In this document: positions 13,101 to 38,108 of the stretch, piece by piece
Numbering within the stretch: position 1 is the stretch's first letter
Layout: each line of letters begins with the position of its first letter
Virus record (IMG/VR): IMGVR_UViG_3300037502_000580
Span: 1 to 64,000 of that record
Strand: one strand, 5' to 3'
From: a virus
DNA length: 64,000 nt
Notes under the pieces: generated by a model
Database searches by the model: none
The model's input: only the letters and a program-made list of their open reading frames with translations
Told to the model about the DNA's origin: nothing
Program-made: the position numbers and the translations under genes

Positions 13101-13220
13101 CGGGAAGACATTTCTGACGAAACCCGAAACGGTATTCGTATTGCCAAGGGACTGGAACCCAGGGTGCGTGAACTTCGGGCTATGTCTGATGATCCTCTTG
13201 CAGAAATAGAAGAGACGTAA
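10164..13220 (+). CDS. Large internal virion protein (large polyvalent protein-like C-terminus)
   Basis: ~1018 aa; FLGLNPSSALINMSQ, MFKKFP, PAFLRNPLKA motifs; ATGA overlap with previous stop; last + strand gene. Confidence 0.6.
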   Translation: MSAKNKWCTLDNGSVPTASRPRQAVGEILVNTIKSGRNMSSDVLATLKNQFANKLKFLWVMVEQMDAMGFSRAKDIEEALKRQRSYEEKLRRHAEKNIETFTNLYKRNRKAAEALQDVGWTASESGVNPFMPRNRYLGRTELLDYEGKKVSEVQLWDILNADLAKISKLDAGAPLALKSIIDSFQFYRKEYARATIQAIKDRAGEGNLKDDETSPNVYEQIKTLKDGFARADNDAYLTLLRTGKYVVNTYRMEGLGEDGVPARVLDESRSFEDRSEAREYADQKKQELKDPSLIDEFIKTDINAMVNGNGRSALNSFFDKVRPALDKLKPTVDVGDPGYETQSAMIENFKERMKDAALLLYPETSIKKQLISKRKNVQGYNRDLLKTYAIMSDRYSNQIAKIRYNASIDVNLGELQQEVISKTRGNRDMNEKANALLNEIAQHVVRFEAPPSALDRFAAATNQLGFMWFLGLNPSSALINMSQVPGVTLPWLSARFPASSVGQLGVSREMIKAYRDVTKFKGMLVEGTISERVDELMKLDDATLRKDYNLTKDEVKMFAELDELGALRSGMQIYDINSIADKGSAYPGSMSHGLFAFQKFAGFAFQKVELINREVSALMAYRLAKNKAMIGKDKPLNTEEAVKFAEQTINKTQGLYSNDQAPAPFMNPALKVILMFKKFPAHMATLYVLMFRDIFKGADPSVRRVARRQFTRMMGMTGLMAGVAGMPLYYIIRDIMNAMLGDEDDPYNFDLELRRGLIEQLGPTVGNMIFSGIPGQSGLGIGQRLGYEASFLLGGTDVGIPFVGGVLGLQDVRRAETLKEEVGNIMFSLLGPAGGIVDGLFRGYDYMEKGDVYRGIESMMPAFLRNPLKAGRFATEGALTARGDALVEDISTLETLGQFFGFSPQRLVSQYSINQGIKDIEQDIMDRRKELLEQYAYEVRTGDRAGQQEVLAEIREFSKVNPYKGVAITQDTISRSLRRREDISDETRNGIRIAKGLEPRVRELRAMSDDPLAEIEET

Positions 13221-17927: not shown

Positions 17928-19509
17928 TGTTAACTCCAGTTTGGTTGCTCATGTTTACTTTGTCAACCTCTTGATAAAAAAGTTCCACAACTTTTGAGTG
18001 GATGTTCTCTTTTTTTCTCAGGGAGGCGTAAACCTTGGCTTCTACCGTACTGCCCTGTAGGTGGACGACTGTCACATTGTGACGCTGCCCCTTGCGGTGC
18101 GCCCTGGCGTTGGCCTGTAAGTAGGACTCCAGACTGGTGGTGGGGCCGAACCAAATGATCGTGTCGGCGGCTGTAAGCGTTACCCCGTGGGCCGCAGCCT
18201 GGGGCTGAATGACCAGCACCCGTGGGTCTTTTTCCTGCTGAAATGTCCTGAAGATCTCGCTTCGTTTGGTCGCCGTAACCTCACCAGATATGATCTCGTT
18301 GGTTATGCCGTTCTCAGTCAGGAAGTCTGAGACAGAGCCTATCGCATGCTTAAATGGCACGAAGACCAGAATCTTATTAGAGGTTTCCCTAATAACCTCC
18401 AGCAACACATCCAGCCGGTTCTTGCCATCAAACGATATCGCATCGCCGTTGTCGGAATAGACAACACCCACGGACAACTGCAGTAACTTGTTCATTAAGG
18501 TCGCGGCGTTGACTGCTGTAATTGTCTCGTCTGCCGCGTGGATCATCATTTGCCGACTGATCTTGTCGTAGTAGGCCTCTTGCTGTCTTGATAGCGGCAC
18601 CATGCGGGTCACATAGGTTATGTCCGGTAGGTCTAGGCACTGCTCTTTGGTGAACCTGATTGCTGGTTGCAGTGCAGCATGGACTCTTTCCACGGCATCT
18701 ACTCTGGGTAACCAGACGAATCGGGACACTTGCGCCATCACATGATCTTTCCAGGCGGTTTTGAACTTCGGCACGCGATGTGGAGAGACAAGTTTTGCCA
18801 TGCCAAAGGCATCTTCTGGTGACTGTGCCGCAGGTGTGCCGGTCAGCATCCACAACCAGACGTTATCGAACATCAGATTGTTTAGGCACTTCCATCTGCG
18901 GGTAGAGGTGTTCTTGTAGGCATTGGCCTCATCGACAATGATCAGATCAAAGCCAGCCCCCTGCAGATCTTTCAGTATGACTTCCACACCGTCGTAGTTG
19001 ATGATTACGAACTCGGCGTCGCTCTCTATGATCTCTTTGCGCTTCTCTGCCCTACCATGGGCTATGGCTACCCTGCGGTGCATGGCGAACCCAAAAAGGT
19101 CTTGTTGCCAAGCAGATTGCATGATTGACAGAGGGCAGATGATCAGAACCCGATTGATGACACCCTTCTTCATCAGATAATCTGCAGCCCAGATGCAAGA
19201 TGCCGTCTTGCCTGTACCTTGCTCATTGAAACAGAAGGCACGCTTGTGCAGGGTGAGGAAGGATGCCGTCTCTATCTGGTGGCTCATGGGCTTATTGAAC
19301 CCAGGCCAGTTGTAGTCCTTCTTTATAGTGGACGGTACGTTTTTGATGTTGAGTCTGGCTAGAGTCTGTGCTTCGTCAAGTCCCCACTTAACTAGCACCT
19401 CAGATGAACCATCCAGACTATTAACGAGTTTACTGTTGGGAATCGTATCCAGAACGGGTCTGGGATTCTTTAGCCTCAACAGCAAGGCTTTGTTGTCGAT
19501 TATTTGCAT
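17920..19509 (-). CDS. SNF2/SF2 DNA helicase
   Basis: EQGTGKT, IVDEA, LTGTP, HGVTLT, QANARAHRKGQ motifs. Confidence 0.92.
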   Translation of the reverse strand: MQIIDNKALLLRLKNPRPVLDTIPNSKLVNSLDGSSEVLVKWGLDEAQTLARLNIKNVPSTIKKDYNWPGFNKPMSHQIETASFLTLHKRAFCFNEQGTGKTASCIWAADYLMKKGVINRVLIICPLSIMQSAWQQDLFGFAMHRRVAIAHGRAEKRKEIIESDAEFVIINYDGVEVILKDLQGAGFDLIIVDEANAYKNTSTRRWKCLNNLMFDNVWLWMLTGTPAAQSPEDAFGMAKLVSPHRVPKFKTAWKDHVMAQVSRFVWLPRVDAVERVHAALQPAIRFTKEQCLDLPDITYVTRMVPLSRQQEAYYDKISRQMMIHAADETITAVNAATLMNKLLQLSVGVVYSDNGDAISFDGKNRLDVLLEVIRETSNKILVFVPFKHAIGSVSDFLTENGITNEIISGEVTATKRSEIFRTFQQEKDPRVLVIQPQAAAHGVTLTAADTIIWFGPTTSLESYLQANARAHRKGQRHNVTVVHLQGSTVEAKVYASLRKKENIHSKVVELFYQEVDKVNMSNQTGVNNE

Positions 19510-24494: not shown

Positions 24495-24688
24495 GTCGTT
24501 CTCCTCTCAATCAGGTTGAACGGGTCATGCCATTTATAAGTCACGGGTACAACTTCGTAATACAAAAACATATTGGATGGCCCACGTTTTTTTGCCATCA
24601 GTCCTGCCTCGACCTGTCTATCTAAGCGGCTACGGGCGGCTTTGAGCGAGATCTTTTTCTTCTTGGCGAAGTCTTTGATGGTCATCAT
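24491..24688 (-). CDS. Small winged-HTH-like protein
   Basis: TIKDFAKKKKISLKAARSRL..AGL; HDPF tail. Confidence 0.5.
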   Translation of the reverse strand: MMTIKDFAKKKKISLKAARSRLDRQVEAGLMAKKRGPSNMFLYYEVVPVTYKWHDPFNLIERRTT

Positions 24689-25008
24689 GTGCCGCGCCCC
24701 CTACTGCAAGGCCAGATAGCCTCCAACTTGTTACGAATAAGACTGTCTGCGGTGTAGTGCCGAGACGCAGGGTTATCTTCTAAATGCTTCTTGATGATGT
24801 CCTGCACCTGACCAGAAGTGATGCCGCTAGGTGGGCAGACTGTCACAGTCGTAAATGTATCGGTCACTCCCATGACGTAACCCAAAGCCAACATCTGACG
24901 CATGTTGCTCCCGTTCATATCGGACAAAAGGTTGTTACCAGACATGAACTCAGCCTGCGCCATTGCTGGCACGAACATCAGACTCAGAAGTAACTTTTTC
25001 ATTTCCAT
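24685..25008 (-). CDS. Rap1a-like immunity protein, secreted
   Basis: Signal peptide, SGN.L, GYVMGVTD, CPP, YL..NP..RH..A, WPC. Confidence 0.8.
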   Translation of the reverse strand: MEMKKLLLSLMFVPAMAQAEFMSGNNLLSDMNGSNMRQMLALGYVMGVTDTFTTVTVCPPSGITSGQVQDIIKKHLEDNPASRHYTADSLIRNKLEAIWPCSRGRGT

Positions 25009-25960: not shown

Positions 25961-26170
25961 TTACGCCAGCTTGCGGGGCCGCCCCGGCTTGCGCTTAGCG
26001 GGTTTGGCTGGACTTGTCACGTTGTGACGGGCTAATACGTGGGCGAACTCGTCTTTAGTTACAGGTTGCCATGCTGTTGCCTTGTTAGCTGTACGCACCT
26101 GGGTCTCAAGCCCATCGGCGTAGCGGCATAGCGCCTCAATAATGATCTCGTATCGCGTCTTTTCATTCAT
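25961..26170 (-). CDS. Hypothetical protein with AT-hook-like tail
   Basis: KRKPGRPRK C-terminus; GAGG RBS. Confidence 0.65.
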   Translation of the reverse strand: MNEKTRYEIIIEALCRYADGLETQVRTANKATAWQPVTKDEFAHVLARHNVTSPAKPAKRKPGRPRKLA

Positions 26171-26225
26171 CTTTTTATCCTCTCAGGGAACTGGTTTCAG
26201 GTGTTCATCGCAAAATTTACGCACG

Positions 26226-26251
26226 AAAAAAATCCCAGCGTATAGCTGGGA
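26226..26251 (-). terminator. Intrinsic terminator
   Basis: TCCCAGC-N5-GCTGGGA plus T7 on - strand. Confidence 0.75.
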
Positions 26252-26274
26252 CTGGGCAGTTTCTGAAAAGTTCC
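26247..26274 (-). promoter_or_regulatory. Possible ECF/sigmaE-type promoter
   Basis: GGAACTT-N15-GTCCCA directly abutting the palindrome at 26275. Confidence 0.4.
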
Positions 26275-26388
26275 GTCACATTGTGACGATTAGGCGAATA
26301 AAAATAGGTGTGGGGTCAACTCTCTGGAGACACGGAAAATGATCTAACCGTAAAAGGAAAGCCCCCCACTGCGGGTGTTGTTCGCATG

Positions 26389-26718
26389 TCAACACGTCAC
26401 CTCCCGCTGGACGCCACCGCTATCAATTCTGTCCAACAACTCAATAAGGTTTGTTATGTCCTCCCGCACGACGAGAGCCTCGCCCCCGGCATTACGAATA
26501 TCCTGTAAATGTTTATCCTGCAGGGCTGTAGTTTGCCCCTTACCTGCTTTGCACTCAATACCTACAAACCTACCCTTGTAGCAAACCAAGATGTCGGGGA
26601 CGCCTGCATTGCCAAACCCACCAGCAACCGGCATGGCATAGTAAGCGCCCCGCTCCTTGAGAAGTTTAGTTACTCGGGCTTTGACTTTCGCTTCTGGGGT
26701 CAACGAAGTTATCTCCAA
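26389..26718 (-). CDS. VRR-NUC nuclease / Holliday junction resolvase
   Basis: TPEAKVK, GVPDIL, FVGIECK, TALQ. Confidence 0.88.
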   Translation of the reverse strand: MEITSLTPEAKVKARVTKLLKERGAYYAMPVAGGFGNAGVPDILVCYKGRFVGIECKAGKGQTTALQDKHLQDIRNAGGEALVVREDITNLIELLDRIDSGGVQREVTC

Positions 26719-27625
26719 TCAGCACATACGCATTACACATAGTGCCTTGAATCATACCGACACCCGGAACGCTCATGTCTCTGCTTGTCGTGGGTACTAT
26801 ATCTAAGACAGCCATGGAGCCAAGAATATCCGCAGGGAGATTACTTTTCCCGATAACCTTGTCGAACAAATAGTCTTTGCTACCGTTTGTCACAATGTGA
26901 CGAACAACTGTGAACTTCTCACCAGGAGACTCGACAACGAGAACGCTGTGCTTCATAAGTTCTGCACGCGCAGCCTTGGCTTCGTCTATCTTGGCAAAGG
27001 CTTCTTCAAAGCAACGCTTGATAGACTTACCCTCAACCGTCTCGATGCCATCACCCCCACACAAAAGGCTACGCATGACCCGAGTCTGCGTCTCAGCGTT
27101 CATGTAATACAACTTACGCACGAGATTGTCTATCTCACTCTCGCTCTTAGTGAACTCCGAACTCTTGTCGATGAATGTACTCGCATTACTCTTTAAGTAC
27201 TCAGCCAGTGAGGACTGTGCTGTCGGTCGAAGCGCGTGAACATACTTATGTATAGCGTTCCGATCCAGCGTACGCCTGACATTGAACGGACGACGGGTCT
27301 GCACATCGTAGTCAAACCGAATCTGCAACTGTGGTTTTTTCCTCTCGCTACCATCGGGCCTGTGAATACAGAAGCCACCAACATCTTTGTACTCACTGAA
27401 GATAACGACATCGCTGATGCGTCGCCGGTCTGAATCAAAATTAACACGATCAAAACTGACACGCACAAAGAACTCATCATTCTTGGGGTGGGTAAGCAAT
27501 GCCTCCATACCCGTACGCATCAACATGTTCTCCTCTGACACATCAAGGTCTGGACGCCCAAAGATAGCCCTCACGGTCTGGATAGTAATGGGGCAAATCA
27601 TTTCCTGCTCGGCTGCTTGTCGCAT
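26666..27625 (-). CDS. Hypothetical protein
   Basis: 319 aa ORF with AAGGAG RBS. Confidence 0.7.
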   Translation of the reverse strand: MRQAAEQEMICPITIQTVRAIFGRPDLDVSEENMLMRTGMEALLTHPKNDEFFVRVSFDRVNFDSDRRRISDVVIFSEYKDVGGFCIHRPDGSERKKPQLQIRFDYDVQTRRPFNVRRTLDRNAIHKYVHALRPTAQSSLAEYLKSNASTFIDKSSEFTKSESEIDNLVRKLYYMNAETQTRVMRSLLCGGDGIETVEGKSIKRCFEEAFAKIDEAKAARAELMKHSVLVVESPGEKFTVVRHIVTNGSKDYLFDKVIGKSNLPADILGSMAVLDIVPTTSRDMSVPGVGMIQGTMCNAYVLIGDNFVDPRSESQSPSN

Positions 27626-27636
27626 TGTGACACTCC

Positions 27637-28533
27637 TTAGAATGAAAACTTGTTGATGATGTCGTTGACACGGGCATGCACATCAGTGCGAACCAGCACA
27701 GACTCACGAAGATCTTTAGCCGTGATGCCTAGCATGGCCTGCTCCAACTCTCGGCGTGCCTCCTCCAGTCGTGGGTCGTTCGCAATGTTTAGCGAAGACA
27801 GGAGCGCACACATCTCCTGCGTGTTGGTAACGAGCGAGTCACGGAATACTTTCTTCTCCCCACCATCATCAACAGCCAAACGCTCAGAAAGATGTTTAAG
27901 GGTGGTGTGCAGTCTGTCCCACACATCCTGCATCGCCTCCTGCATCTTGGCCTGGAAGTGCGTCTCGTACTGCGCGGTCAACTCTGCCTGCATCTCGTTG
28001 CTCACATCAACACGGAAGTCACCGGACGACGGCAGTGGGTAGTAGTTCACATTGAAGTAGAACTTGCGATCCACCTCGGACTGCGTTGGGTACTCGTCTG
28101 CGTTAAACATGTCACCGAGTTCAAAGGCAACCGCAGACTTTAGCGTCGGGTAGACTGTCACAAAGTGACGCTTCAAGTCGTGCAGTTCGGTTAACTTCTC
28201 ATTGGCTATCGTCACATAGTTCAGATAGTTCTTCATTGGCAGAAGACGGATGCCGCTATCCAGCCAGGGTATAGTCTGCGTGTAGTGCCAATTACGAAAC
28301 GCGCCGACTGCCTTCTTCAGGTCGTCATGCTCTTTGACCCCAGGCAATAAGTTCTTACTGTAATTACCAGCACGGCTCTTGGCGTTCTTGTTCTGCGCCA
28401 CCTCCTCAGACACAGCGCGGTCAGTCTTACGGGCCTGCCAGAACCCGATGTTGAGTTCGACAAGCATTGATTGGTTAATCATTGCGGTTACGTTGCTTGG
28501 GTTCAAGCTCATGTTTGTTTGCGTGGTTTGCAT
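27637..28533 (-). CDS. DUF3150-like protein
   Basis: W..RK.D, T.PW...G.RLLP, F...YP, FRDS motifs; typical neighbour of phage AAA/VWA pairs. Confidence 0.6.
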   Translation of the reverse strand: MQTTQTNMSLNPSNVTAMINQSMLVELNIGFWQARKTDRAVSEEVAQNKNAKSRAGNYSKNLLPGVKEHDDLKKAVGAFRNWHYTQTIPWLDSGIRLLPMKNYLNYVTIANEKLTELHDLKRHFVTVYPTLKSAVAFELGDMFNADEYPTQSEVDRKFYFNVNYYPLPSSGDFRVDVSNEMQAELTAQYETHFQAKMQEAMQDVWDRLHTTLKHLSERLAVDDGGEKKVFRDSLVTNTQEMCALLSSLNIANDPRLEEARRELEQAMLGITAKDLRESVLVRTDVHARVNDIINKFSF

Positions 28534-28547
28534 GGTTCTCTCCAGAG

Positions 28548-29768
28548 TTAAAGTTTGATTACCTTGCCGGGGAAGTTCCCGACCCTACCTTTACTGCTAA
28601 TCACCCAGACCGTAGGCGGCATGCCGCTCCAGTCACCTACATCACCAACCTCTCCATCAGTAAAGATGACCAAAGCCTGACTTGTCACTTTGTGACAGAG
28701 CATGTACTCCCTAACGCAACCAACTGTCGTGCCTCCACCTCCTTCCGGTTTAGTAGACTGCGGGATGCTGTCTATCTGATCTTGCGTATAGATCTCGTGC
28801 TTGCACACTGTCGTGTCCCAATACAGCAGATGAATCTTCTCGGGCTGCACTATCTTGCAGATGCCCACCAACTCAGAGAGGAACTCGATAAGTTCAGACT
28901 GCCCGATAGATCCTGACATGTCAGTGGCAATCGTTATCGACTCCATCGACTCCGAGATCGATGTTGGCATGTACATGTCCTGAGACACGAACCTTCTGTT
29001 AGGACGCCGCCATGACGAGTCACTGCGTGCGGCACATGTTGAGATCATGAATTCCCTAAGAAGTTCATACGGGTTAAGTTTAGGTTCCAACAAGTCAGCG
29101 AAGTCTCGTTGTCCACCCGAGCCAGCCTCTCCCTTCTTCTTAAGTAAGATCTCGCCTTGCCGGAGCGCCTGATCAATCTTGCGCTCAACTTCCTTGCGCT
29201 CCTCTTCATTCCAAGACTCTGCACTTTGCCAATCGTGTTCATCAAACCCTCCGCTGTTATCGCCATCACCGTCGTCACCATCATCGCCGTCGTCGCCGTC
29301 GTCGTCGCCGTCATCTTCATCTTGTTCCTGCATTAAGATGTCAAAGACTTGTCGGGCATCCATACCCTCAAACCGCTTGTCCATGCACCCATTCGCAGGC
29401 ATCTGGGCAACTTCTCCATACGGGTCGTACTTAGTGATCTGCAGGTTGATGACATGATCGCAGGCGGCATTGGCGATCTTGGGGTTCTGCTCGTAGAGGT
29501 TGCGCCACACCAGCATATGTTTGTAGGCCTTGTGCCAATTCTCATGCAGCACCAGGAAGTTCAACTCTTTGTCGGTCAGACTTGTCACAAAGTGACGCCC
29601 GTACTGAGTGTTCAGCCCGTCAGTCCGTGCTGTCATCTTGGGGTTGTCCACGACCTCGGTCTTGCCAGAGACAAGAATCCCCGACATAAGAATAAACTTC
29701 TTATGCGCCATGAGCGTCACATGCGCTCTGTGCAGGCGTTGTTCAGCCGTTAGTTTTGAAAGATCCAT
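28548..29768 (-). CDS. Metallopeptidase-like + VWA domain protein (DUF2201 type)
   Basis: HENWH, N.A.D..IN, acidic linker, MIDAS DMSGS, GGGGT, FTDG. Confidence 0.85.
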   Translation of the reverse strand: MDLSKLTAEQRLHRAHVTLMAHKKFILMSGILVSGKTEVVDNPKMTARTDGLNTQYGRHFVTSLTDKELNFLVLHENWHKAYKHMLVWRNLYEQNPKIANAACDHVINLQITKYDPYGEVAQMPANGCMDKRFEGMDARQVFDILMQEQDEDDGDDDGDDGDDGDDGDGDNSGGFDEHDWQSAESWNEEERKEVERKIDQALRQGEILLKKKGEAGSGGQRDFADLLEPKLNPYELLREFMISTCAARSDSSWRRPNRRFVSQDMYMPTSISESMESITIATDMSGSIGQSELIEFLSELVGICKIVQPEKIHLLYWDTTVCKHEIYTQDQIDSIPQSTKPEGGGGTTVGCVREYMLCHKVTSQALVIFTDGEVGDVGDWSGMPPTVWVISSKGRVGNFPGKVIKL

Positions 29769-29782
29769 CTGTATCTCCTCAA

Positions 29783-30175
29783 TTAATTAACACGAAGTAT
29801 CGTGATCTCAGTTCTGTCTGCATTGAATTCAGTCAGGTAGTTCTTAGACCCAAACAATCTACGACCCGAATTGCACACGACCGAACGCATAGTGTCTGGG
29901 TGGTACTTGCATGGGATAGTCGCTGTCTGCCCAGGCTCAAGCGGGGCGATGTACTCATTAACATACTCAGACGGCTCACCCCTCTTTGCTTCAGGGTTGC
30001 GGGTTGCGACACGCGCAGGCTTCTCCTTCTTTTTCTTCTGCGGTTCGATGACCCCATCGGGGTCATGCACGATAACTTCTCCGTCAGCCAGCACGACTTT
30101 GAACGAGGCTCCGCTGTTGCGTAGGAAGGCGAGTTGCGTCTCGGTTGCTTTACGAACGATGCTTGTGATTGCCAT
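29783..30175 (-). CDS. Hypothetical protein
   Basis: 130 aa with GAGGAG RBS, between AAA and VWA genes. Confidence 0.7.
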   Translation of the reverse strand: MAITSIVRKATETQLAFLRNSGASFKVVLADGEVIVHDPDGVIEPQKKKKEKPARVATRNPEAKRGEPSEYVNEYIAPLEPGQTATIPCKYHPDTMRSVVCNSGRRLFGSKNYLTEFNADRTEITILRVN

Positions 30176-30195
30176 GACTGTATCTCCTCAATTAG

Positions 30196-31266
30196 TTAGC
30201 GTGCTTTGGCAAAGATGTAGTTATTGCGTGTGGCCCAGTCAATGAATGACGCATGGCCTGCCGCCTTGGCGTTGTCAGACTCAAGTAGTGAACGCGCAAA
30301 TACGCCTTGGTTCTCTTTGGGTAGACGCTCAAGGTAGATCATCCAGCGTTCGATGTTCTCGCGCTTAACATGTAAGACAGCCTTGTAGGTCATGATGCAG
30401 TTCGCCACGGGGTCACTCGGTATGCTTATGCCATGCGGGTCAGCGAGAATAGAATCGAAGGTCGGCATCTTGTCATCCAGGTTGATGAACGCATGCAGAG
30501 ACCGCGCACCAGACTCGCCAATCGAACCGATCAAGGCTGCAAGCATTGGCTCATCACCGATTAACTTGCGCTTCTTCACGATGTTGGATGCCTTCTCAAA
30601 CGAACGCGGAGAACAGAAGGCTGTCTGGACTTCTTTAGGGTTGAAGATGTACTGGTTCTTGGCCTGGCTGGGGTCAAGATAGGAAGCCATGGTCTCGGGG
30701 TACTGATCAACGAACGCGATAACTTGTTCTGTCACGTTGTGACGGATCGCCCACTTGATCCACTCTTCAGCCGTGGGCTTACGGAAATTGACCACAGCCA
30801 TACGGTTCTGGGCGTGCGCTTTGAGATGATCGCCTACGCCATCCTGCGACAGATTGCCCGTGGCAAAACGCAAAGACCCCTCGGGTAAGTAAGTGTCACC
30901 GATGCGCCCCTCAAGTAAGAGAGGCAATAACATGTTCTGCACAGACTGCGATGCTTTGGTCAGCTCGTCCAGCATAAGAATGACGGGCCTGCCCGTGTGC
31001 AGTTTGAAGTGTGCGTTTGGATAATATCGCGTGCAGTTCAACTCTCTGTCGATGAACGGCATTGCAATGTCGCCCAGGTCAAGGTTCGCGCAGTCGATGT
31101 ACGCTACCTCGTGATCGGGGAATAACTTAGCAAGATCTTTGAGCATGGATGACTTGCCAACACCAGGCTCGCCACGGAAAAGAATCGTGTCGGTCTGGCC
31201 CAGGTTTGCCACCATGGCAACGGCTTGCTCGTGATTTACGGAAGTTCCAAATGTGATAGTACCCAT
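30196..31266 (-). CDS. MoxR-like AAA+ ATPase
   Basis: GEPGVGKS, LMLDE, ATGN, NR, SPRS. Confidence 0.88.
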   Translation of the reverse strand: MGTITFGTSVNHEQAVAMVANLGQTDTILFRGEPGVGKSSMLKDLAKLFPDHEVAYIDCANLDLGDIAMPFIDRELNCTRYYPNAHFKLHTGRPVILMLDELTKASQSVQNMLLPLLLEGRIGDTYLPEGSLRFATGNLSQDGVGDHLKAHAQNRMAVVNFRKPTAEEWIKWAIRHNVTEQVIAFVDQYPETMASYLDPSQAKNQYIFNPKEVQTAFCSPRSFEKASNIVKKRKLIGDEPMLAALIGSIGESGARSLHAFINLDDKMPTFDSILADPHGISIPSDPVANCIMTYKAVLHVKRENIERWMIYLERLPKENQGVFARSLLESDNAKAAGHASFIDWATRNNYIFAKAR

Positions 31267-31309
31267 GATGCGTAATGCTCCTTAAGATGTTAGAAAGATA
31301 AAACACAGG

Positions 31310-31348
31310 AATAAAAAATAAAAACAAAAACAAAACAAAACAAAACAA
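31310..31348. repeat. (CAAAA)n simple repeat in the leader of the AAA operon
   Basis: ataaaaaataaaaacaaaaacaaaacaaaacaaaacaac. Confidence 0.8.
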
Positions 31349-31437
31349 CTACATCTACCGCCTACATCTGCCGTCACAATGTGACAGCCCCAGCCATACA
31401 TCAACAACTTAATAGACAAATCTATAACCTACCCTTA

Positions 31438-31466
31438 TTGGACAAGAAAAGCCGAACAAAAGTTCC
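31438..31466 (-). promoter_or_regulatory. ECF/sigmaE-type promoter
   Basis: GGAACTT-N16-GTCCAA followed by TAAGGGTAG; intergenic. Confidence 0.7.
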
Positions 31467-31482
31467 CTACCCCTGAAATGTT

Positions 31483-31668
31483 TCAGGTTACATTCAGGAA
31501 GTCTTGACCGAACCATCCACTGCTCCCATCGGCAAAGGCGATCTTGTAGTAGATGTTGTTGCCGAACCATTCCCACTCGACTACTAGTCCGGCATCATCA
31601 ATGCCACGCACATCTACGACCTCGCCCACATTAAACATCTGCCCGATGTCACTTTGTGACACGCTCAC
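31483..31668 (-). CDS. Small SH3-like hypothetical protein
   Basis: FNVGEVV..GLVV..YYKI..WF; GGAGG RBS. Confidence 0.55.
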   Translation of the reverse strand: MSVSQSDIGQMFNVGEVVDVRGIDDAGLVVEWEWFGNNIYYKIAFADGSSGWFGQDFLNVT

Positions 31669-31671
31669 CTC

Positions 31672-31818
31672 CTAATAAGAAAGCATCATCAGAATCATGT
31701 AGGCCAGGAACGCAGCAAAGGCAAGACCAAGAACGCCTAAGAAGTCAAGGAACACTGCCCTAAATTCCTTTGCCCGACGAATACGCCTACGCCTTTCGAT
31801 TGAGTTGATTGAAGTCAT
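31672..31818 (-). CDS. Small membrane protein (48 aa, below ORF-track cutoff)
   Basis: MTSINSIERRRRIRRAKEFRAVFLDFLGVLGLAFAAFLAYMILMMLSY; ATGA overlap. Confidence 0.55.
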   Translation of the reverse strand: MTSINSIERRRRIRRAKEFRAVFLDFLGVLGLAFAAFLAYMILMMLSY

Positions 31819-32027
31819 ACATCTCCCCCTTTTTCTCCGCGTGAATAGATCGTGTCCATCGTCTCTGCTACGAACGACAGGGCAATGCGCTTCTCAGTGC
31901 CACTACGAAACGCCGCCACAGCCAGCACGAACGCTAGTGCTGGTATCACTTGATCGATATGGTGACCATTGAGCGCCTCATCTATCTGCATGAGTAGGCG
32001 CTTGTACTTCTTATCGTCTATTTCCAT
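31815..32027 (-). CDS. Hypothetical protein
   Basis: MEIDD start with GGAGG upstream. Confidence 0.55.
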   Translation of the reverse strand: MEIDDKKYKRLLMQIDEALNGHHIDQVIPALAFVLAVAAFRSGTEKRIALSFVAETMDTIYSRGEKGGDV

Positions 32028-32031
32028 TTCC

Positions 32032-32334
32032 CTACCTCCATGTCCTATGCGTCTCCGCAACATGCTCCATCCCGTCGTACTCCTCGACGAACCACTCCAC
32101 GCCATCCGGCACAGAGAGAACCTTCAACTCGGCGTAGTTACCATTGGCCCTATCGCCTAACTCCTCAACGACTGCCACCAGATCGGCATCGTCGCGGGGC
32201 AGGAAATACTCCAGGGTCGCCTTGGCCTCATCGTTGTCCTCGTAGTTCTCACCCTTGCGAATCGCTAACATCTTTATGGCAAGGTCAGACAGTCCGAACC
32301 CGCCATAGCATCTATTAACCACGACTTTCTGCAT
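32032..32334 (-). CDS. Conserved phage hypothetical protein
   Basis: KVVVNRCYGGFGLS...R.D..LV.VVEELG..ANG...EYDG.E...H.TW. Confidence 0.8.
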   Translation of the reverse strand: MQKVVVNRCYGGFGLSDLAIKMLAIRKGENYEDNDEAKATLEYFLPRDDADLVAVVEELGDRANGNYAELKVLSVPDGVEWFVEEYDGMEHVAETHRTWR

Positions 32335-32429
32335 CTCAAATCCCCCACACATTTAAAAGAATCAGCCCACCGCACACGGTCAGCACTAGGAAATAAAAAA
32401 TAAAGATCATCTGTCCCATCTCGTTCTCC

Positions 32430-32741
32430 TTATGGTCTACCATCAGCGCCAACCCAACCCATGCCGACATAGTCGCTAGGGTCTTCGTAGTTCTCAACCA
32501 TGTCCATGTGGTCAGCGATTGTCCACACGGGCTTCTGCTTGCCGTCGAACCCGAACGCTCTCCACTTGTACAACGCGAACGGCACACATGACTTATGCTC
32601 TCCTCCTTTCATGGCATTAATCAATCGCCAATTCCAATGATCTGTTACTCGGTTGGAATGGTTGTATGCCCATGTCCATGGTTGTGGTCGTTTGCATGTC
32701 CACGGCTGTGGGCGCTTGCTGTATCTTTCCGCTCTGTTCAT
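32430..32741 (-). CDS. Hypothetical protein
   Basis: KRPQPWT tandem duplication; C-terminal MGWVG.DGRP. Confidence 0.55.
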   Translation of the reverse strand: MNRAERYSKRPQPWTCKRPQPWTWAYNHSNRVTDHWNWRLINAMKGGEHKSCVPFALYKWRAFGFDGKQKPVWTIADHMDMVENYEDPSDYVGMGWVGADGRP

Positions 32742-32742
32742 C

Positions 32743-33000
32743 TCACACCGCCTTTCCGTCACTTTGTGACACCTCACGAAGCCTCTGAACCAAGGCCACC
32801 AAACTCTCATCTATGCAGTCGTCATCACCGAACGCGCCCATGTCACCGTCGAACAAGGCAAGGAACTCGGCACACTCACCGCTAACTTCTTCAGCCGTGG
32901 CCTGCAGTATCTGCTCATCGCGGTTGTCGTCCTGAACCAGCAACGCAAGGGCATACGCCCGCTCTAACATCTCAATCAATCTATCCATACTCTCGTCCAT
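32743..33000 (-). CDS. Acidic hypothetical protein
   Basis: 85 aa, coupled in early operon. Confidence 0.55.
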   Translation of the reverse strand: MDESMDRLIEMLERAYALALLVQDDNRDEQILQATAEEVSGECAEFLALFDGDMGAFGDDDCIDESLVALVQRLREVSQSDGKAV

Positions 33001-33001
33001 C

Positions 33002-33298
33002 TCACACCCCCTCGTTGACTAAACCGCCTTTGTTGTTGATGCCCACTGCCGCCTCGCGTGCGAAGGCAGAAGTGAAGTACATCGCCCCTTGTTTGTGTGG
33101 TGTTAAAACACACCATAACTTCCTATCCTGTCTTGCCTGCTCCTCGCCACACTCAAGGCACACGCGCTTGCCAATCTGCCACCGGGCGAACTCAATGTAG
33201 TCACCGCACATGCGGCACTGCGGATCATTGAAGTCGCGGGTTTCTGGTTGCTGATGTGTGTGGTGTTGTTGGTACTGCGTTTTGGTTTGCATGCTCAT
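33002..33298 (-). CDS. DksA/TraR-like C4 zinc-finger protein
   Basis: CRMCG.YI...R...G...CLECG; HKQG; N.KG. Confidence 0.65.
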   Translation of the reverse strand: MSMQTKTQYQQHHTHQQPETRDFNDPQCRMCGDYIEFARWQIGKRVCLECGEEQARQDRKLWCVLTPHKQGAMYFTSAFAREAAVGINNKGGLVNEGV

Positions 33299-33379
33299 CT
33301 CCAGGTTTGCGGGGTGTCACATTGTGACGACCCCAGGGGTTAAAGAAAAATCAAACACAAAAACTTATCCCTACCCTTA

Positions 33380-33408
33380 TTGGACAACGAAACCTGATGA
33401 TAAGTTCC
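33380..33408 (-). promoter_or_regulatory. ECF/sigmaE-type promoter
   Basis: GGAACTT-N16-GTCCAA-TAAGGGTAG; intergenic. Confidence 0.7.
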
Positions 33409-33424
33409 CTAAAGCTGAATTAAA

Positions 33425-33808
33425 TCAAGGACTTACACGACTACCCACCCTCCTCTTTTTCTCCTCATCAAACAACACCCCGCTGAGCGCCTCGACCACC
33501 AGCATCCCCGTGGCTATGCCCATCGAATACCTACCATGCCCACGCCCTGCGGCATGCAGTCCTCGGTTGATAACTTCTCCTAAATTAAACTGCCGTACCA
33601 TCTGCCCTACCGACTCCCCCTGCTCATCGAACTCCAGCCGTGCTATCTGTAAGTTGGGGTTGCACAGCCCGTACTCTTTGACCACACCCGCCAGCACATA
33701 GAACGCCTGCGCTTCGTACTCATAGGTGTCAAGTTGTTGTCGTAGCAGGGTTATTTGTTGTTGCAGTTGGTTTATTTGGTTTATCAGGTCTGCTCGTTCG
33801 TCTTTCAT
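33425..33808 (-). CDS. Hypothetical protein with N-terminal coiled coil
   Basis: 127 aa; ATGA overlap with upstream gene. Confidence 0.6.
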   Translation of the reverse strand: MKDERADLINQINQLQQQITLLRQQLDTYEYEAQAFYVLAGVVKEYGLCNPNLQIARLEFDEQGESVGQMVRQFNLGEVINRGLHAAGRGHGRYSMGIATGMLVVEALSGVLFDEEKKRRVGSRVSP

Positions 33809-34548
33809 TTTCTCCCCCGTATCGCACTGGCGATTAACTCGTCTAGTTTTACCCTCAATAACTCAGCCACCACGGCATCGGCTAACTCATCTTCCTTGAC
33901 CTCCACGGTTCGCAGTGTCTTCATCTCGTCTTTGACTGTCTTCACCTCATCCTTTAGTGCCCTGAGTTCCAGCTTTAGTTCCTTGATGTTGTCGAGAATC
34001 TGCTGACCCAGGCTGATCTTGGGGGCTATGTTGTTTGGGTTAGTTGCGTGGGTTGCGCCAGGGGTTGCGTTGCCCGTTGCGCCGGGGGTTGCGTGTTCTT
34101 GATTCAGTGGATCCTGCTCTAACTTCTCATTGACTCGCCTGTTGTGCTTGGTGCGCGGCCCCTCGGATAGTTGGCAGTGGGCGGGGTTCACACACAAGGG
34201 GTTGCGGCATACCCGTGTGATGCGCCCAAGGGTTGCGGGGTCTTGGTGCAGGAGGGTGTTCAGGCGTTTGAAGATGTAAGAGTGCGCGGGGTAATTCATG
34301 TACCGGGCGGAGCCTTGGTTCTTGTCGGTTGCGCCTTGCCATTCCCAGCAGGGGAGGCCTTTGGTTTGGGGGGTGAGTTTGGCGGCAAGGGCCAGCTTCA
34401 CGGGGTCTGTCACGATGTGACAGTTCTGCCGAACCCAGGCGAGGAACTCGCTCTTTTGGGGGTCTGATAATGGTTGATCATCGCGTAGGGGAATTCCGGC
34501 ACGGTCGATGAATTTGGGGTGTGGGGTGGTTTGGGGGACGAAACGCAT
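33805..34548 (-). CDS. HNH/His-Me-finger-like protein (degenerate active site) with C-terminal coiled coil
   Basis: CWEWQG...AH...CRNPLCVNPAH; the usual catalytic His before CxN reads as R. Confidence 0.65.
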   Translation of the reverse strand: MRFVPQTTPHPKFIDRAGIPLRDDQPLSDPQKSEFLAWVRQNCHIVTDPVKLALAAKLTPQTKGLPCWEWQGATDKNQGSARYMNYPAHSYIFKRLNTLLHQDPATLGRITRVCRNPLCVNPAHCQLSEGPRTKHNRRVNEKLEQDPLNQEHATPGATGNATPGATHATNPNNIAPKISLGQQILDNIKELKLELRALKDEVKTVKDEMKTLRTVEVKEDELADAVVAELLRVKLDELIASAIRGRK

Positions 34549-34581
34549 GGGGTGGACTCCGTGAGTGTGGGGGGAAAAGGG

Positions 34582-34609
34582 TTCGACAGGGGAGGCGTGG
34601 GGAAGTTCC
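34582..34609 (-). promoter_or_regulatory. ECF/sigmaE-type promoter
   Basis: GGAACTT-N15-GTCGAA about 34 nt upstream of ATG 34548. Confidence 0.55.
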
Positions 34610-34613
34610 AGCG

Positions 34614-34922
34614 TGGTTTACAGATTGTAAACGATAGGGTAAATGGGGTGGGTGTTGTAATTTTGCGTCATAAATTTCTTTAATTTACTTATATATTACT
34701 AATTTGTTTGAGCTGAACATTATTATATTACCTTTTTTCTAAATTTCCGAGGAAAATCATGCGCGGAGCAAAAAATACCCCTTTTTTACGGTTTACAATC
34801 TGTAAACCAACGAAACGACATTTTTGGGAACGCCAAAACTGCCGGAAAAAAAGAAAAAAGGTAATATAATAGTAGTGTAGTAGTAGTAGTATAGTAATAT
34901 ATAAGTAAATTAATGAAATTTA
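34614..34922. repeat. AT-rich long inverted repeat, candidate replication origin
   Basis: 34671-34701/34892-34922 (30/31), 34721-34740/34852-34871 (20/20), 34614-34632/34791-34809 (19/19), all inverted. Confidence 0.75.
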
Positions 34923-34932
34923 ATATCTCCTA

Positions 34933-34949
34933 AGCAATGCTTGTGCCAA
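34933..34949 (-). promoter_or_regulatory. sigma54 (-24/-12) promoter
   Basis: TTGGCAC-AAGCA-TTGCT matches TGGCAC-N5-TTGC; intergenic. Confidence 0.6.
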
Positions 34950-34997
34950 CTTTCGGGGGAGTGTCACAAAGTGACAAAAAAACTGCTTTTTTGCGGT

Positions 34998-35031
34998 TGA
35001 TGGCGAGAATTCGTGCGATACCAGTTCCCCC
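34998..35031. repeat. 34-bp conserved non-coding element, copy 1 (copy 2 at 35865..35898)
   Basis: TGATGGCGAGAATTCGT(G/A)CGATACCAGTTCCCCC, 33/34 identical. Confidence 0.85.
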
Positions 35032-35094
35032 TGCAAAGGGCCATGGATCCCTGCGGGTAAGATGTTCATGGGTGTGTCACATTGTGACAGGCGC

Positions 35095-35121
35095 AAAAAA
35101 ACCCCAGGTGTTGCCTGGGGT
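35095..35121 (-). terminator. Intrinsic terminator
   Basis: CCCCAGG-N5-CCTGGGG plus T7, just after stop 35140. Confidence 0.8.
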
Positions 35122-35139
35122 GTTAAGGGTTGGGGTTGC

Positions 35140-35718
35140 TTAGACTGCTTCTTTGAGGAGTCCGTCTTCGATTGCCGCTTCTTCGATATCGGGCCACATG
35201 GTCAACAGGTTCTCGACCGCCTGGGGTTCGCACTGCGACAGGTGATTGCGGAGAACACGCAACGCTTCCGCTACTTTGTCATAGGATGTTGTACCCGAAC
35301 CCGTCCCTGGCGCCGCTTCCCTAGGCGTGTACCGATCTAGCCCTAAGATCTCAACGCAGTAGGTCAAGAATCGGCTGTACTGCTCACGCGGATTACCGCC
35401 TGATTCCGAACGCGCCTTGACACGCTCGACGATTGCCGTCTTGATACCCTGGGCGTATTCCTTGTGGGTCTTCGCCTGTTCAGAGTTCTCCGATTTCAGG
35501 AAATCGACCGCACGCTTCGCTTCCTTGACGATTGCCGGATCACGCTTGCTCAGCATCGCGTAGTGGATCCACTCAGACCCGAACAGGTTGATTGCCTCGT
35601 GGGCGGAAGCACGCCACTGCGCCTTGATTGATTCTCTTGCCTGGGACTCGATATCGAGAGCCTGGTCAACGATAGCGGCGAACACTGCGAACTTCTCAAC
35701 GGTTGTTTGAACTTGCAT
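35140..35718 (-). CDS. Early hypothetical protein, paralog A (192 aa)
   Basis: MQVQTT start with GGAGA RBS; roughly two-thirds identical to 36470..37054. Confidence 0.85.
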   Translation of the reverse strand: MQVQTTVEKFAVFAAIVDQALDIESQARESIKAQWRASAHEAINLFGSEWIHYAMLSKRDPAIVKEAKRAVDFLKSENSEQAKTHKEYAQGIKTAIVERVKARSESGGNPREQYSRFLTYCVEILGLDRYTPREAAPGTGSGTTSYDKVAEALRVLRNHLSQCEPQAVENLLTMWPDIEEAAIEDGLLKEAV

Positions 35719-35789
35719 TTTTGAATCTCCTGGTAAGATGTCACAATGTGACAGGGTTGGTTTAACATCATTACTGCGTCCTACCCTTA

Positions 35790-35818
35790 TAAGACAATGA
35801 AACCTGGTGATAAGTTCC
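35790..35818 (-). promoter_or_regulatory. ECF/sigmaE-type promoter
   Basis: GGAACTT-N16-GTCTTA-TAAGGGTAG, abutting the palindrome at 35819. Confidence 0.7.
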
Positions 35819-35864
35819 GTCACAGTGTGACAAGTCCAGGCGCAACTGGCGAGGCATTGCTGGG

Positions 35865-35898
35865 TGATGGCGAGAATTCGTACGATACCAGTTCCCCC
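35865..35898. repeat. 34-bp conserved non-coding element, copy 2
   Basis: See 34998..35031. Confidence 0.85.
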
Positions 35899-35962
35899 CG
35901 CGCAGGGCCGGTGCATGCAGGCAGTGTCACATTGTGACGGGTCAGTGCAAGAATTTCGGGCG

Positions 35963-35989
35963 AAAAAAAAACCCGCCGATTGGCGGGTT
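35963..35989 (-). terminator. Intrinsic terminator
   Basis: CCCGCC-N4-GGCGGG plus T9 after stop 36008. Confidence 0.8.
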
Positions 35990-36007
35990 ATGTGGAGGGG
36001 GGCGGAC

Positions 36008-36229
36008 CTAGATTTTAAAGAGGGTTCCCCGTCTGAGGTTCCCGTATCTGATCATGATATCGGTAAACCCATCTGCCTTCAGTGCCTCAGTATCGCGGGA
36101 GCTGAGGTATCCGTGAACCTTCATACTCTCGGCCTTGAAATCTTTCCCGGCCTGCCAATCTGCCATGGCTTCCTTCGCGTTTTTGTAGTCACGGCCATAT
36201 GCGGGGGATACAGTTAAAAGGTTAATCAT
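36008..36229 (-). CDS. Conserved small phage early protein
   Basis: PAYGRDYK..KEA.ADW.AGKDF...IRY; CAGGAG RBS. Confidence 0.75.
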   Translation of the reverse strand: MINLLTVSPAYGRDYKNAKEAMADWQAGKDFKAESMKVHGYLSSRDTEALKADGFTDIMIRYGNLRRGTLFKI

Positions 36230-36254
36230 TGTTTTCTCCTGAGATGTTAAAGGG

Positions 36255-36410
36255 TTAAAACCAAACTTCATCTTGCACACCATCACGGAGGCAGAAGGTC
36301 TCGCATGCGTCTGCAATGACCCCGAGGTTCCCGATGATGGGCAGATGGGCGATGAAATTAAAAAGATATCCGATGGGTGATTTCAGAAATGAAACGATAT
36401 GTTTTTTCAT
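36255..36410 (-). CDS. Small hypothetical protein (51 aa)
   Basis: MKKHIVSFLKSPIGYLFNFIAHLPIIG...; GGAG RBS; fills the gap. Confidence 0.5.
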   Translation of the reverse strand: MKKHIVSFLKSPIGYLFNFIAHLPIIGNLGVIADACETFCLRDGVQDEVWF

Positions 36411-36469
36411 GGCTAAATTCTCCGATTAGGGTTAAGACCCCCGTCACGATGTGACGGGGGGAAGGGTTA

Positions 36470-37054
36470 CTACACCGACTCTTTCAGAAGGCCATCAGTC
36501 ACTGCGGCTTCTTCAATGTCTGCCCACATCTCTAGGACATTCTCCACGGCCTGAGGTTCACATTGGGGCAGGTGGTTTCTCAGGACACGCAAGGCCTCTG
36601 CGACTTTATCGTATGAGGTGGTGCCTGAACCTGTGCCGGGGGCTTTGGCCTCTTTCGGCACATAGACATCAGTCAGGCCTGCGGCCTCCACCGCATAGGC
36701 CAGAAACCGACTCCATTGTTCGCGGGGATTTCCGCCATCCTCTGAACGGGCCTTCACGCGATCAGTCACTGCGGCCTTGATGCCTGAGGCATACTCTTTA
36801 ATCGTTTTATAGGTCTCAGAGTTTACGGCCTTTAACTCTGCCACCTTGCGTTTGGCAGTCGCGGCAATGGCCTCATCGCGTTTGGAAAGCATGGCGATGT
36901 GAATCCATTCATTACCGAATAGATCGATGGCCTTGTGTGACATGTCACGCCATGCGGCCTTAATCGCGGCAGAGGCCTCAGACTGAAGGTCAAGGGTAGC
37001 GTCAACAATGGCGCCGAAGGATACTAGCTTTTCGTTTGTCGTTTGTACTTGCAT
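36470..37054 (-). CDS. Early hypothetical protein, paralog B (194 aa), first gene of the leftward arm
   Basis: MQVQTT start, GGAGA RBS, paralogous to 35140..35718. Confidence 0.85.
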   Translation of the reverse strand: MQVQTTNEKLVSFGAIVDATLDLQSEASAAIKAAWRDMSHKAIDLFGNEWIHIAMLSKRDEAIAATAKRKVAELKAVNSETYKTIKEYASGIKAAVTDRVKARSEDGGNPREQWSRFLAYAVEAAGLTDVYVPKEAKAPGTGSGTTSYDKVAEALRVLRNHLPQCEPQAVENVLEMWADIEEAAVTDGLLKESV

Positions 37055-37124
37055 TTTTAAATCTCCAGAAGGTGTCACATCGTGACGGGTTAAGGGTTAC
37101 TAAGGTTTTCTGCCCTAGTGACGG

Positions 37125-37153
37125 TTGGACAATGAAAGCCGGGGATTAGTTCC
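37125..37153 (-). promoter_or_regulatory. ECF/sigmaE-type promoter
   Basis: GGAACTA-N16-GTCCAA. Confidence 0.65.
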
Positions 37154-37484
37154 CTGACATGTCACGATGTGACGGGGTACCGGACGGGGGCACCCCCCGC
37201 CAGCGAGGGGGGGATGGAGCCTCATGACATATTAAACCGCACGACCAATCTCAACTTTTTCAAACTCCCCCCTCCCCTATGTTAGTCTTCGCTAACTTAC
37301 CCGTACCCCCCATTTCCCCTAATACCACCCCCTTGTTTTCTGCTGGAGTCCCGGCTCCTTCGGTGCTATATTTTTCTGGGGTAGGTAGTCGGCGCGGCGA
37401 CTCTAAACAGCCCGTAGCTCCTTTGGCTGGGTGCAAATGTAAAAATCCTACCCCCCTACTATTTTTTGTGTTTATAATCCGCGC

Positions 37485-38108
37485 ATGCAACTACTTGAAC
37501 CGGAAGTAGGCGTGGACGTTCCAGAGTCCAACTTTAATTTTCAAGACGTATACGAGAAAGCTCGTATCGCGTGCAATACTGCTTTGGAATTAAACCAACG
37601 TGGTATGCCTATCGAGATCGATAAAGAAGATGAACTCTTTGCTGAGAGGATCATCAAGGAAGAGATCTCAATCCCCACCAACTACAATTTCTCTGCTGGT
37701 ACCGCAGTAAAACTCGGCGCACTGCTGCAAGAGTACGACGTGCAGGTTGCCAAAAGTGCTGCCCAGTTACGTACCGTCTCCACTAACAAACTCATAGAAA
37801 TGCTAGACGACCCAGACCCCAAGGTCAGGCTTAAGGCTATTGAGTTAATCGGCAAGATTGCTGACGTGGGTCTCTTTGCTGAGAGAACCGAGATAACCAT
37901 AAATCACAAGTCAACTATCGAGTTGCAGCAGGAGTTGGCTAAGTTAGTAAGTGACTATGTGGATGTGGAAACCAAGTTAGTAACAAGTGACACGGAGGAA
38001 GAAGAGGAAGAAGATGGGGCACCACGAGAAGAGGAAGAAAGAGAGAGCGCTGGCACGCAAGAAGGAGATGCAGAAGCTGCTAGAGACGAAACTGAGGAAG
38101 ACAAGTGA
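37485..38108 (+). CDS. terS: Putative terminase small subunit
   Basis: Directly upstream of TerL; RLKAIELIGK...GLF.ER.EI motif; acidic tail. Confidence 0.65.
   Translation: MQLLEPEVGVDVPESNFNFQDVYEKARIACNTALELNQRGMPIEIDKEDELFAERIIKEEISIPTNYNFSAGTAVKLGALLQEYDVQVAKSAAQLRTVSTNKLIEMLDDPDPKVRLKAIELIGKIADVGLFAERTEITINHKSTIELQQELAKLVSDYVDVETKLVTSDTEEEEEEDGAPREEEERESAGTQEGDAEAARDETEEDK

Follow-up and report, generated by a model that had tools for sequence, protein, structure and literature searches.

A confined array of palindromes in the early arm of an uncultured aquatic phage, candidate sites for a phage-made dimer

The virus record IMGVR_UViG_3300037502_000580 of IMG/VR (total length 87,451 bp), whose first 64,000 nucleotides are the stretch analysed here and called the window, carries many copies of one short palindrome, GTCAC-N3-GTGAC (GTCACNNNGTGAC), which raises the question of what reads these sites and to what end. 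All 21 exact sites listed in a preliminary description of this DNA were recovered, against a mean of 0.08 and a maximum of 1 in 100 shuffles. Twenty of them lie inside 26.0-37.2 kb, and the 21st is an outlier within the helicase gene of the same leftward arm (18071..18083). The whole record contains the identical 21 sites and no more, and the reversed control pattern is absent from it. The confinement to the early arm that had been proposed thus holds for the record and is found again in relatives, as does, in the window, the proposed rise in density toward 37.2 kb, with 9 sites within 34,409-37,173. Spacing through the early genes is ~ 0.1-1.1 kb.

The sites are uniform beyond the ten fixed bases. 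Each is preceded by a pyrimidine (-1) and followed by a purine (+1), and the spacers are A/T-rich, in line with the earlier account. The central base is W (A or T) in 20 of the 21 sites; read on the plus strand, it is T in 11, A in 9 and G in 1, with no strand bias. The half-site obtained from the pooled halves is tGTGACr around the central W. One site with a single mismatch (GTCGCATTGTGAC; 27619..27631) stands at the junction of two genes and probably belongs to the set, since in the relative L007 the homologous junction also bears a site (at its position 13186). The other one-mismatch match, at 9792, looks like chance.

We propose that the palindromes are bound by a phage-encoded symmetric dimer, most likely the product of the first early gene (head gene A), and that this dimer would control the early arm as a block, a reading to which we give about an even chance. 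Judged by comparison with relatives, the array is a real, strongly selected and family-wide set of putative duplex DNA binding sites, which varies the theme of dispersed operators and whose putative binder matches no recognised family.

The array occupies the first 11 kb of a leftward arm, in which minus-strand genes run from 37.1 to 13.3 kb. This arm holds small genes without an assigned role, a MoxR-type ATPase, a DUF2201/VWA protein and a DUF3150-like protein, followed by DNA polymerase, helicase and primase; rightward genes (terL, portal, tail genes) start from 37.3 kb. The leftward arm is presumably expressed early. Four near-identical copies of GGAACT-N17-GTC[CT][AT]A (GGAACT-N17-GTCCAATAAGGGTAGG) are present in the window, every one of them on the minus strand and within the array, and they look like promoters for an extracytoplasmic function (ECF) sigma factor of the RpoE/AlgU type. 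The first of these putative promoters, GGAACT-N17-GTCCAA, lies at 37125..37153, and copies 2, 3 and 4 at 35790..35818, 33380..33408 and 31438..31466. A scan of the region for the sigma-70 consensus gave fewer matches than shuffled sequence.

Every promoter-like box has a palindrome 30-58 nt downstream, and three of these palindromes are found in 5' leaders only 20-24 nt before a start codon: 37074..37086 is 20 nt ahead of the ATG of head gene A, 35740..35752 is 22 nt ahead of that of head gene B, and 33316..33328 is 24 nt ahead of that of a zinc-finger gene. The fourth, 31373..31385, is in the leader ahead of the ATPase gene, downstream of the box at 31466-31438. The statement that these four sites fall between promoter and start codon is therefore borne out. 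Site 35819..35831 directly adjoins the GGAACTT of the element at 35818-35790, also as described. For the intergenic site 26275..26287, placement at a promoter is only partly upheld: it adjoins a GGAACTT, but a matching -10 element is lacking and a rho-independent terminator (26253-26231) follows. Site 1 of the array (37161..37173) lies in the divergent intergenic region, upstream of the first promoter-like box, and has an exact counterpart at the homologous place in the relative L005. The first array site is likewise upstream of the first promoter in L031, where the order site, promoter, site, Shine-Dalgarno sequence, ATG is the same as in the window. As the promoter is ECF-like in the window and sigma-70-like in L031, the palindromes do not seem to depend on promoter type.

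Sites also mark the ends of the first transcription units. The first two early units end in hairpins resembling rho-independent terminators, one closing the first unit (35970..35989, minus strand) and one past head gene B (35101..35121, minus strand), and directly past each stands a further palindrome (35926..35938 and 35076..35088, respectively). Site 36443..36455 is located 15 nt past the stop codon of head gene A, where C5/G5 flanks lengthen it into an inverted repeat of 10 bp. Overall, the stretch 10-25 nt ahead of start codons is enriched 5.9-fold in sites. Eleven sites are intragenic, 9 of them in the frame reading [RC]HxVT. They include 34409..34421 in an HNH-like gene (encoding CHIVT), 30731..30743 in the MoxR-type ATPase gene (encoding RHNVT), 29584..29596 and 28684..28696 in the DUF2201/VWA gene, the latter at a position common to L005 and L007, 28157..28169 in the DUF3150-like gene, 26889..26901 in a gene of 319 amino acids and 26016..26028, the last site of the array, in a gene of 69 amino acids. 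Site 32758..32770 is intragenic in the other reading frame (VSQSD), the frame used also at 31648..31660, at the start of a small open reading frame.

Conservation offers a greater level of detail about what is being maintained. For 15 of the 21 window sites, an exact site is present at the homologous position of L005, at a local identity of 68-88%. Within the ATPase gene, the codons spell RHNVT in the window and NNNVT in L007, each preserving the motif of its own phage, so that the protein sequence yields to the DNA motif. These comparisons show, at the level of sequence, selection of the sites as DNA.

To follow the array through the family, an ATPase profile search of IMG/VR was used, which returned 356 relatives; 80 loci were kept, each taken as +-10 kb. 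De novo palindrome counts revealed that in most of the 80 loci a single dyad, of the type xT[AC]ACA-N1-2-TGT[GT]Ax, is repeated 7-25 times. The majority dyad is CTAAC-N3-GTTAG, and some loci have the same halves with one extra central base. GTCAC-N3-GTGAC is the dyad of the window and L005, mixed TAACA and TCACA halves are found in L006, L007 and L016, an intermediate lineage, and the other variants are ATAAC, GTAAC, TTAAC and TAACC, as well as CGTAAAA-S-TTTTACG. In five long records (four of them >= 90% complete), CTAAC-N3-GTTAG is restricted to a single domain of 9-12 kb, with 0 control matches; in L031, this domain extends from the divergent promoter region to the gene before DNA polymerase. 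The core TAACA-W-TGTTA is essentially retained in relatives down to 44% ATPase identity and in many samples. In single genomes, central spacers of 1 bp occur side by side with spacers of 2 bp, and on the ATPase tree the spacer has switched many times, which suggests two loosely coupled readers of the half-sites. Two loci without a TAACA-type dyad have other repeats near the head of the early arm, L040 with GAAGCAGCGGAAGC 5-6 times and L047 with CGACATATTGTCG 7 times and GTAATATTAC 4-10 times. An apparent stop-codon recoding in L029 turned out to be a gene-calling artefact, the ATPase being intact.

Whether the palindrome is read as duplex DNA or as a folded strand can be judged from how its halves vary. 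For 810 sites drawn from 57 loci, complementarity of the outer pair was seen 644 times, where independence would give 654 (z -0.95). In 40 loci we counted 614 perfect sites, 63 variants altered in a single half (shuffle background 16.6) and 9 compensated doubles (background 9.2). In L007, 7 of the 8 sites first listed are asymmetric, TAACA-W-TGTGA, so that a stem would hold a mismatch. Half-sites that vary independently, variants that stay uncompensated and an asymmetric lineage together favour a symmetric dimer on duplex DNA over a hairpin, a dimeric protein having been suggested for these sites from the start. A hairpin whose stem bases are read specifically would lack compensation as well, which makes the asymmetry of L007 the stronger argument. 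Hairpin promoters of the N4 type share the form (5-7 bp stem, 3-nt loop); their strand specificity and base-paired stem are not seen here, given the unbiased central base, the missing compensation and the asymmetric L007 sites.

The gene that follows the motif best is the first of the arm. Head gene A (36470..37054, minus strand, 194 amino acids) has a paralog, head gene B (35140..35718, minus strand, 192 amino acids), with which it shares 71% identity. Both paralogs had been named among the possible binders, and they belong to the family that tracks the motif best. BLAST clusters of head genes are homologous by hhalign profile comparison (97.9% and 81.6%), and the family has at least 269 members, none with an informative name or Pfam domain. 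Presence and absence were compared over 32 loci spanning terS to the ATPase. The head family is present in 28 of 28 loci with a T[AC]AC-type array and in 0 of 4 loci without one, namely L034 (a divergent GTAAA motif and an unrelated first gene of 270 amino acids), L046 and L047 (other motifs) and L067 (no array). L067 and its sister L078 are nested in the CTAAC clade and keep the core genes, with no array. L067 has no head gene, and the L078 locus does not cover that region; at positions where relatives have intragenic sites, both show decayed sequence, for example CTAACATTGTTAG versus GCAACATCGTCCG. A site is found at the start of 38 of 41 head genes and at the stop of 33 of 41. In sequence terms, motif type is thus shown to be associated with the head-gene family.

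Structure prediction points in the same direction. The model of a head-protein homodimer scored 0.79, compared with 0.00 for the best control. Among proteins of solved structure, 20 of 30 one-chain pairs and 1 of 23 single chains attained this mark. Runs agree in >= 73% of contacts, with a partner pLDDT (predicted local distance difference test, a measure of model confidence) of >= 82. At the level of model confidence, as distinct from measurement, a head protein that forms a homodimer is thus supported, and the first early gene product is the most likely site binder, an identification that we infer. The winged helix-turn-helix proteins encoded at 24999 and 25283 and the HNH-like protein, which the preliminary description had also put forward, are restricted to the sub-clade of the window and are poorer candidates because they are not conserved across the family. 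Among 108 small early proteins of nine relatives, Pfam detected no recurrent DNA-binding family, with sporadic matches to Sigma70_r4, HTH_7, Myb and TrmB.

We hypothesize that the phage-made symmetric dimer would bind the duplex sites (half-site tGTGACr, central W) with high affinity. Once bound, it would hinder initiation and also block elongating host RNA polymerase in the manner of stoperators, negative feedback or shut-off being its most likely mode of action. The gene of the binder would be that of an orphan helical family with two paralogs, placed in a short separate transcription unit and bracketed by sites. Control of the whole early arm as one block is suggested because sites flank promoters, sit in 5' leaders and recur through the early genes, and negative feedback followed by shut-off because the gene of the regulator forms the first, separately terminated unit. 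Repression as the outcome is likewise what we infer. The proteins scanned included no member of an integrase or repressor family, and the genome contigs of 185,579 species yielded no plasmid or prophage copies or relatives; the latter makes a temporal switch in a virulent phage likelier than lysogenic immunity.

Several observations weigh against this proposal. Searches of Pfam, PHROGs, NCBIfam, PDB profiles, Foldseek and VIA assign the head protein no recognised DNA-binding domain, fold or family: Foldseek gave no match at E <= 0.001 in PDB or BFVD, and the best VIA Z was 5.4, to generic helical bundles. The protein is mildly acidic (median isoelectric point 5.5). The CTAAC motif class holds two quite dissimilar head-protein subfamilies, and because these share one motif, no specificity residue can be traced in the head alignment. 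The association of motif and gene amounts to three or four independent lineages, with the compared genes being those within the +-10 kb loci. With 614 perfect sites against an excess of ~ 46 imperfect ones, the set is stricter than most operator sets, and about half of the sites are intragenic, far from promoters. Finally, several relatives have 8-13 isolated half-sites clustered in a non-coding stretch of ~ 450 bp beside the head gene, at a place resembling the AT-rich island of the window, and these clusters resemble an origin or a centromere no less than an operator.

A broader version of the proposal is that the first early protein is the founding member of a new family of dimers that bind DNA sequence-specifically. 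With ~ 20 perfect palindromes, and in some lineages the half-site clusters, it would build a nucleoprotein domain covering the early arm in a large group of virulent aquatic phages. The domain would serve as a temporal gate for the whole arm or as a DNA-handling structure, for which nothing comparable is described in lytic phages, and the specificity would have been re-tuned repeatedly (GTCAC, CTAAC, GTAAC, ATAAC; centres of 1 or 2 bp). We regard this as possible, if somewhat improbable.

The claim that the system is undescribed stands, as no described system matches it, and a literature search for the motif strings returned nothing relevant. The analogy to the stoperators of mycobacteriophage L5 is a functional one and does not extend to their form. 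In Cluster A mycobacteriophages, the stoperators bound by L5 gp71 and its relatives are asymmetric sites of 13 bp that point in the direction of transcription, are read by a monomer and occur in both arms of temperate phages (PMC9283540, PMC6550527). The likeness lies in many (20-35) near-identical short sites for one phage protein, found at promoters but also between genes and inside transcription units, and in their interpretation as blocking both initiation and elongation. They differ from the dyad studied here, which is perfect with equal halves and without orientation, 20 of its 21 sites being within 11 kb and none in the late arm, whereas stoperators are distributed genome-wide. Coliphage T1 and Citrobacter phage Stevie, both lytic, have 16-20 copies of a mostly intergenic 22-bp repeat (PMC4319613), so unexplained repeat arrays do exist in lytic phages. 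In contrast to the present array, those repeats are non-palindromic and asymmetric, follow the direction of transcription and are not confined to the early arm (PMC4319613).

Among inverted-repeat systems, the array has in common with one temperate phage that many such operators lie in the early region. In phiC31, repressor c binds more than a dozen 17-bp conserved inverted repeats, mainly in the early region near early promoters. The family of this repressor, which we take to be Pfam PF25746, gave no Pfam match in the head protein or other early proteins, even at an E of 10 for 16 head-family members. A language-model comparison (Atlas) of the head protein with the phiC31 repressor family gave a similarity of 0.77, which is a lead only and is not confirmed by Pfam.

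The strongest competitor to transcriptional control keeps the protein-DNA sites and assigns them a structural role, as a centromere or a ParB/KorB-like loading array, as a replication-origin or fork-barrier system, or as a coat that organises, protects or imports the early arm. KorB operators (OB) of IncP plasmids and the ParB/parS sites are perfect palindromes of 13-16 bp scattered across a replicon, some of them intragenic, from which a dimer acts at promoters from various distances. The palindromes of the array resemble parS or KorB operators in being perfect, dispersed and often intragenic, and they are very strictly conserved within a sharply confined domain. The dense half-site clusters in the non-coding stretch beside the head gene of relatives fit such a role, as does the window's island of AT-rich inverted repeats (34.56-34.95 kb), which has sites on both flanks. 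The replicon here is a phage, however, the sites are far denser (~ 2 per kb), and no ParA, ParB, KorB or initiator domain was detected among the proteins scanned, of which many small ones are without family. Partition has no obvious use, given that plasmid or prophage copies are missing from the species genomes, and the repeated placement at promoters and in 5' leaders is what transcription control predicts. We consider a structural role improbable, though clearly to be kept in mind. The simpler repeat functions fall away: the sites span 11 kb, which rules out iterons or pac sites, and flanks that are not conserved rule out a mobile mini-element.

Two further explanations appear to us very unlikely, to a similar degree. 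The sites might be targets of a sequence-specific enzyme, such as a nicking or homing-type nuclease of the phage or a modification enzyme. The strictness of the sites (614 perfect, 63 imperfect) is enzyme-like, a protein resembling HNH/His-Me-finger nucleases is encoded within the array (33805-34548), and T5-like phages have site-specific nicks. This gene is present only in the sub-clade of the window (cluster 48) and not throughout the family, however, methyltransferases are sporadic, and regular placement at promoters and ribosome sites together with confinement to one arm would not be expected of enzyme targets. Avoidance of a DraIII-type core (CACNNNGTG) was ruled out separately, the core being enriched instead.

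The sites might also be bound by a host protein, either a domain organiser like MatP or a transcription factor that the phage recruits or titrates. The MatP/matS system of enterobacteria, to which the preliminary description had likened the array, has the same pentamers GTGAC and GTCAC, a 13-bp dyad and ~ 20 sites that define a domain; the GTGAC half-site is that of matS with the order swapped. Moreover, ECF-like and sigma-70-like promoters suggest different hosts, which could account for the different motifs too. The analogy does not hold up: the matS site (GTGACRNYGTCAC, searched as GTGACNNNGTCAC), that is, GTGAC-N3-GTCAC, occurs 0 times in the window, and the swapped order of the half-sites gives a different geometry. 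MatP is a host protein, while the motif here varies between phage lineages together with the first gene of the phage itself, a pattern that speaks against a host factor. The nested CTAAC lineage that lost gene and sites, a core that remains near-identical over distant relatives and many samples, and spacers of 1 and 2 bp together in single genomes point the same way.

Least probable of all is an element of RNA or single-stranded DNA, be it a translational operator, a processing site or a hairpin promoter for an N4-like virion RNA polymerase. In its favour, the sites could form a stem of 5-6 bp closed by a loop of 3 nt, 23% of them are placed 10-50 nt ahead of a start codon, the ATPase is similar to its N4-like counterparts (~ 26% identity) and very large virion proteins match C-terminal parts of giant phage proteins. 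Against it, compensatory changes are missing, the stem of L007-type sites is mismatched, and the lack of strand bias in the central base rules out a hairpin promoter of uniform orientation. In addition, sites are found both upstream of the first promoter and deep within genes, host-type promoters are present and the ~ 1,000-amino-acid virion proteins have no sequence match in PDB.

Some other elements of the array domain deserve description beside the sites of the proposed dimer. A 33-bp repeat, GGGGAACTGGTATCG[TC]ACGAATTCTCGCCATCA, is present in two copies on the minus strand (35895-35869 and 35028-35002), each lying between a site near a terminator and the site after it; an analogous box is found three times in L007, and the repeat may be a second promoter type. 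The AT-rich non-coding island at 34560-34950 contains nested inverted repeats (self-match 34671-34922), lies between two sites and the HNH-like gene, and looks origin-like in its sequence; site 34963..34975 separates it from the neighbouring 33-bp repeat box. A C4 zinc-finger protein of 96 amino acids (33002-33292, minus strand) has a weak match, under the Pfam cutoff, to the DksA/TraR zinc finger (E 0.0066). RNA polymerase is the target of TraR-type proteins, which stimulate sigma-E promoters, so a zinc finger of this kind would suit the ECF-like early promoters. Just beyond the end of the array, among small early or middle genes, a protein of 107 amino acids (24685-25008, minus strand) matches the Rap1a immunity-protein family (E 4e-16). 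The DUF3150-like family and the core families of 309 and 286 amino acids in the array domain gave no PDB matches. On the other side of the divergent region, the gene at 37485-38108 had been labelled terS; it lies directly upstream of terL, but PHROGs gave no match, and the label reflects position alone.

The source record itself calls for some care. Its positions 63,674-87,451 are a diverged repeat of 1-23.9 kb, at 65-80% identity: 63674-66754 matches window 1-3097 at 80.6%, and further matches of 65-80% continue to ~ 23.4 kb. In sequence, the record looks like a genome of ~ 63.7 kb followed by 23.8 kb from a diverged relative, and it is probably a chimeric or concatenated assembly, which makes its CheckV rating of '100% complete' misleading. 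Complete relatives measure 60-66 kb, in line with a genome of ~ 63.7 kb. The second genome copy ends at the equivalent of ~ 23.9 kb in the first, before its own array domain (26 kb onwards). Two adjacent proteins of ~ 1,000 amino acids in the window (7117-13220, plus strand) correspond to one protein of 2,395 amino acids in the second copy (record 72362-79549). Matches of the second one are to the C-terminal parts of giant phage proteins, of which some are annotated as DarB-like antirestriction. For these virion proteins of 1016 and 1020 amino acids, PDB gave no sequence match, and their PHROG matches are unnamed or DarB-like giant proteins.

The phage or very close kin appears to be widespread, since 42-99% of the 31-mers sampled from window 30000-38000 were recovered in Logan contigs of 20 runs from 14 studies, whose source metagenomes are subsurface, lake, freshwater, seawater and aquaculture. 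None of the sequencing runs listed is of RNA. Aligned to the array, contigs of four runs show ~ 640 variant positions. A megablast of the array against cultured phages gave no match. A distant cultured relative, Planktothrix phage Pag-Yong1 (L094, OL906435.1), has the same divergent architecture (record 16.8-58.5 kb) and 22 copies of GGTTCAGnCTGAACC, 17 in the early and 5 in the late arm; the copies checked against the annotation are at gene junctions. Its first early protein has no detectable relation to the head family.

If the proposed control of the early arm by a phage-made dimer is correct, a large and globally distributed group of uncultured aquatic phages of 60-66 kb would run its early block by one protein and ~ 20 perfect operators, and a new family would be added to the known DNA-binding proteins. 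The lineage-specific motifs would then represent a natural series of changes in protein and site specificity, through which the evolution of recognition could be studied, and would provide an orthogonal set of tight operator-repressor pairs. The array is also a simple sequence signature by which the early arm can be located in metagenomic phage contigs.

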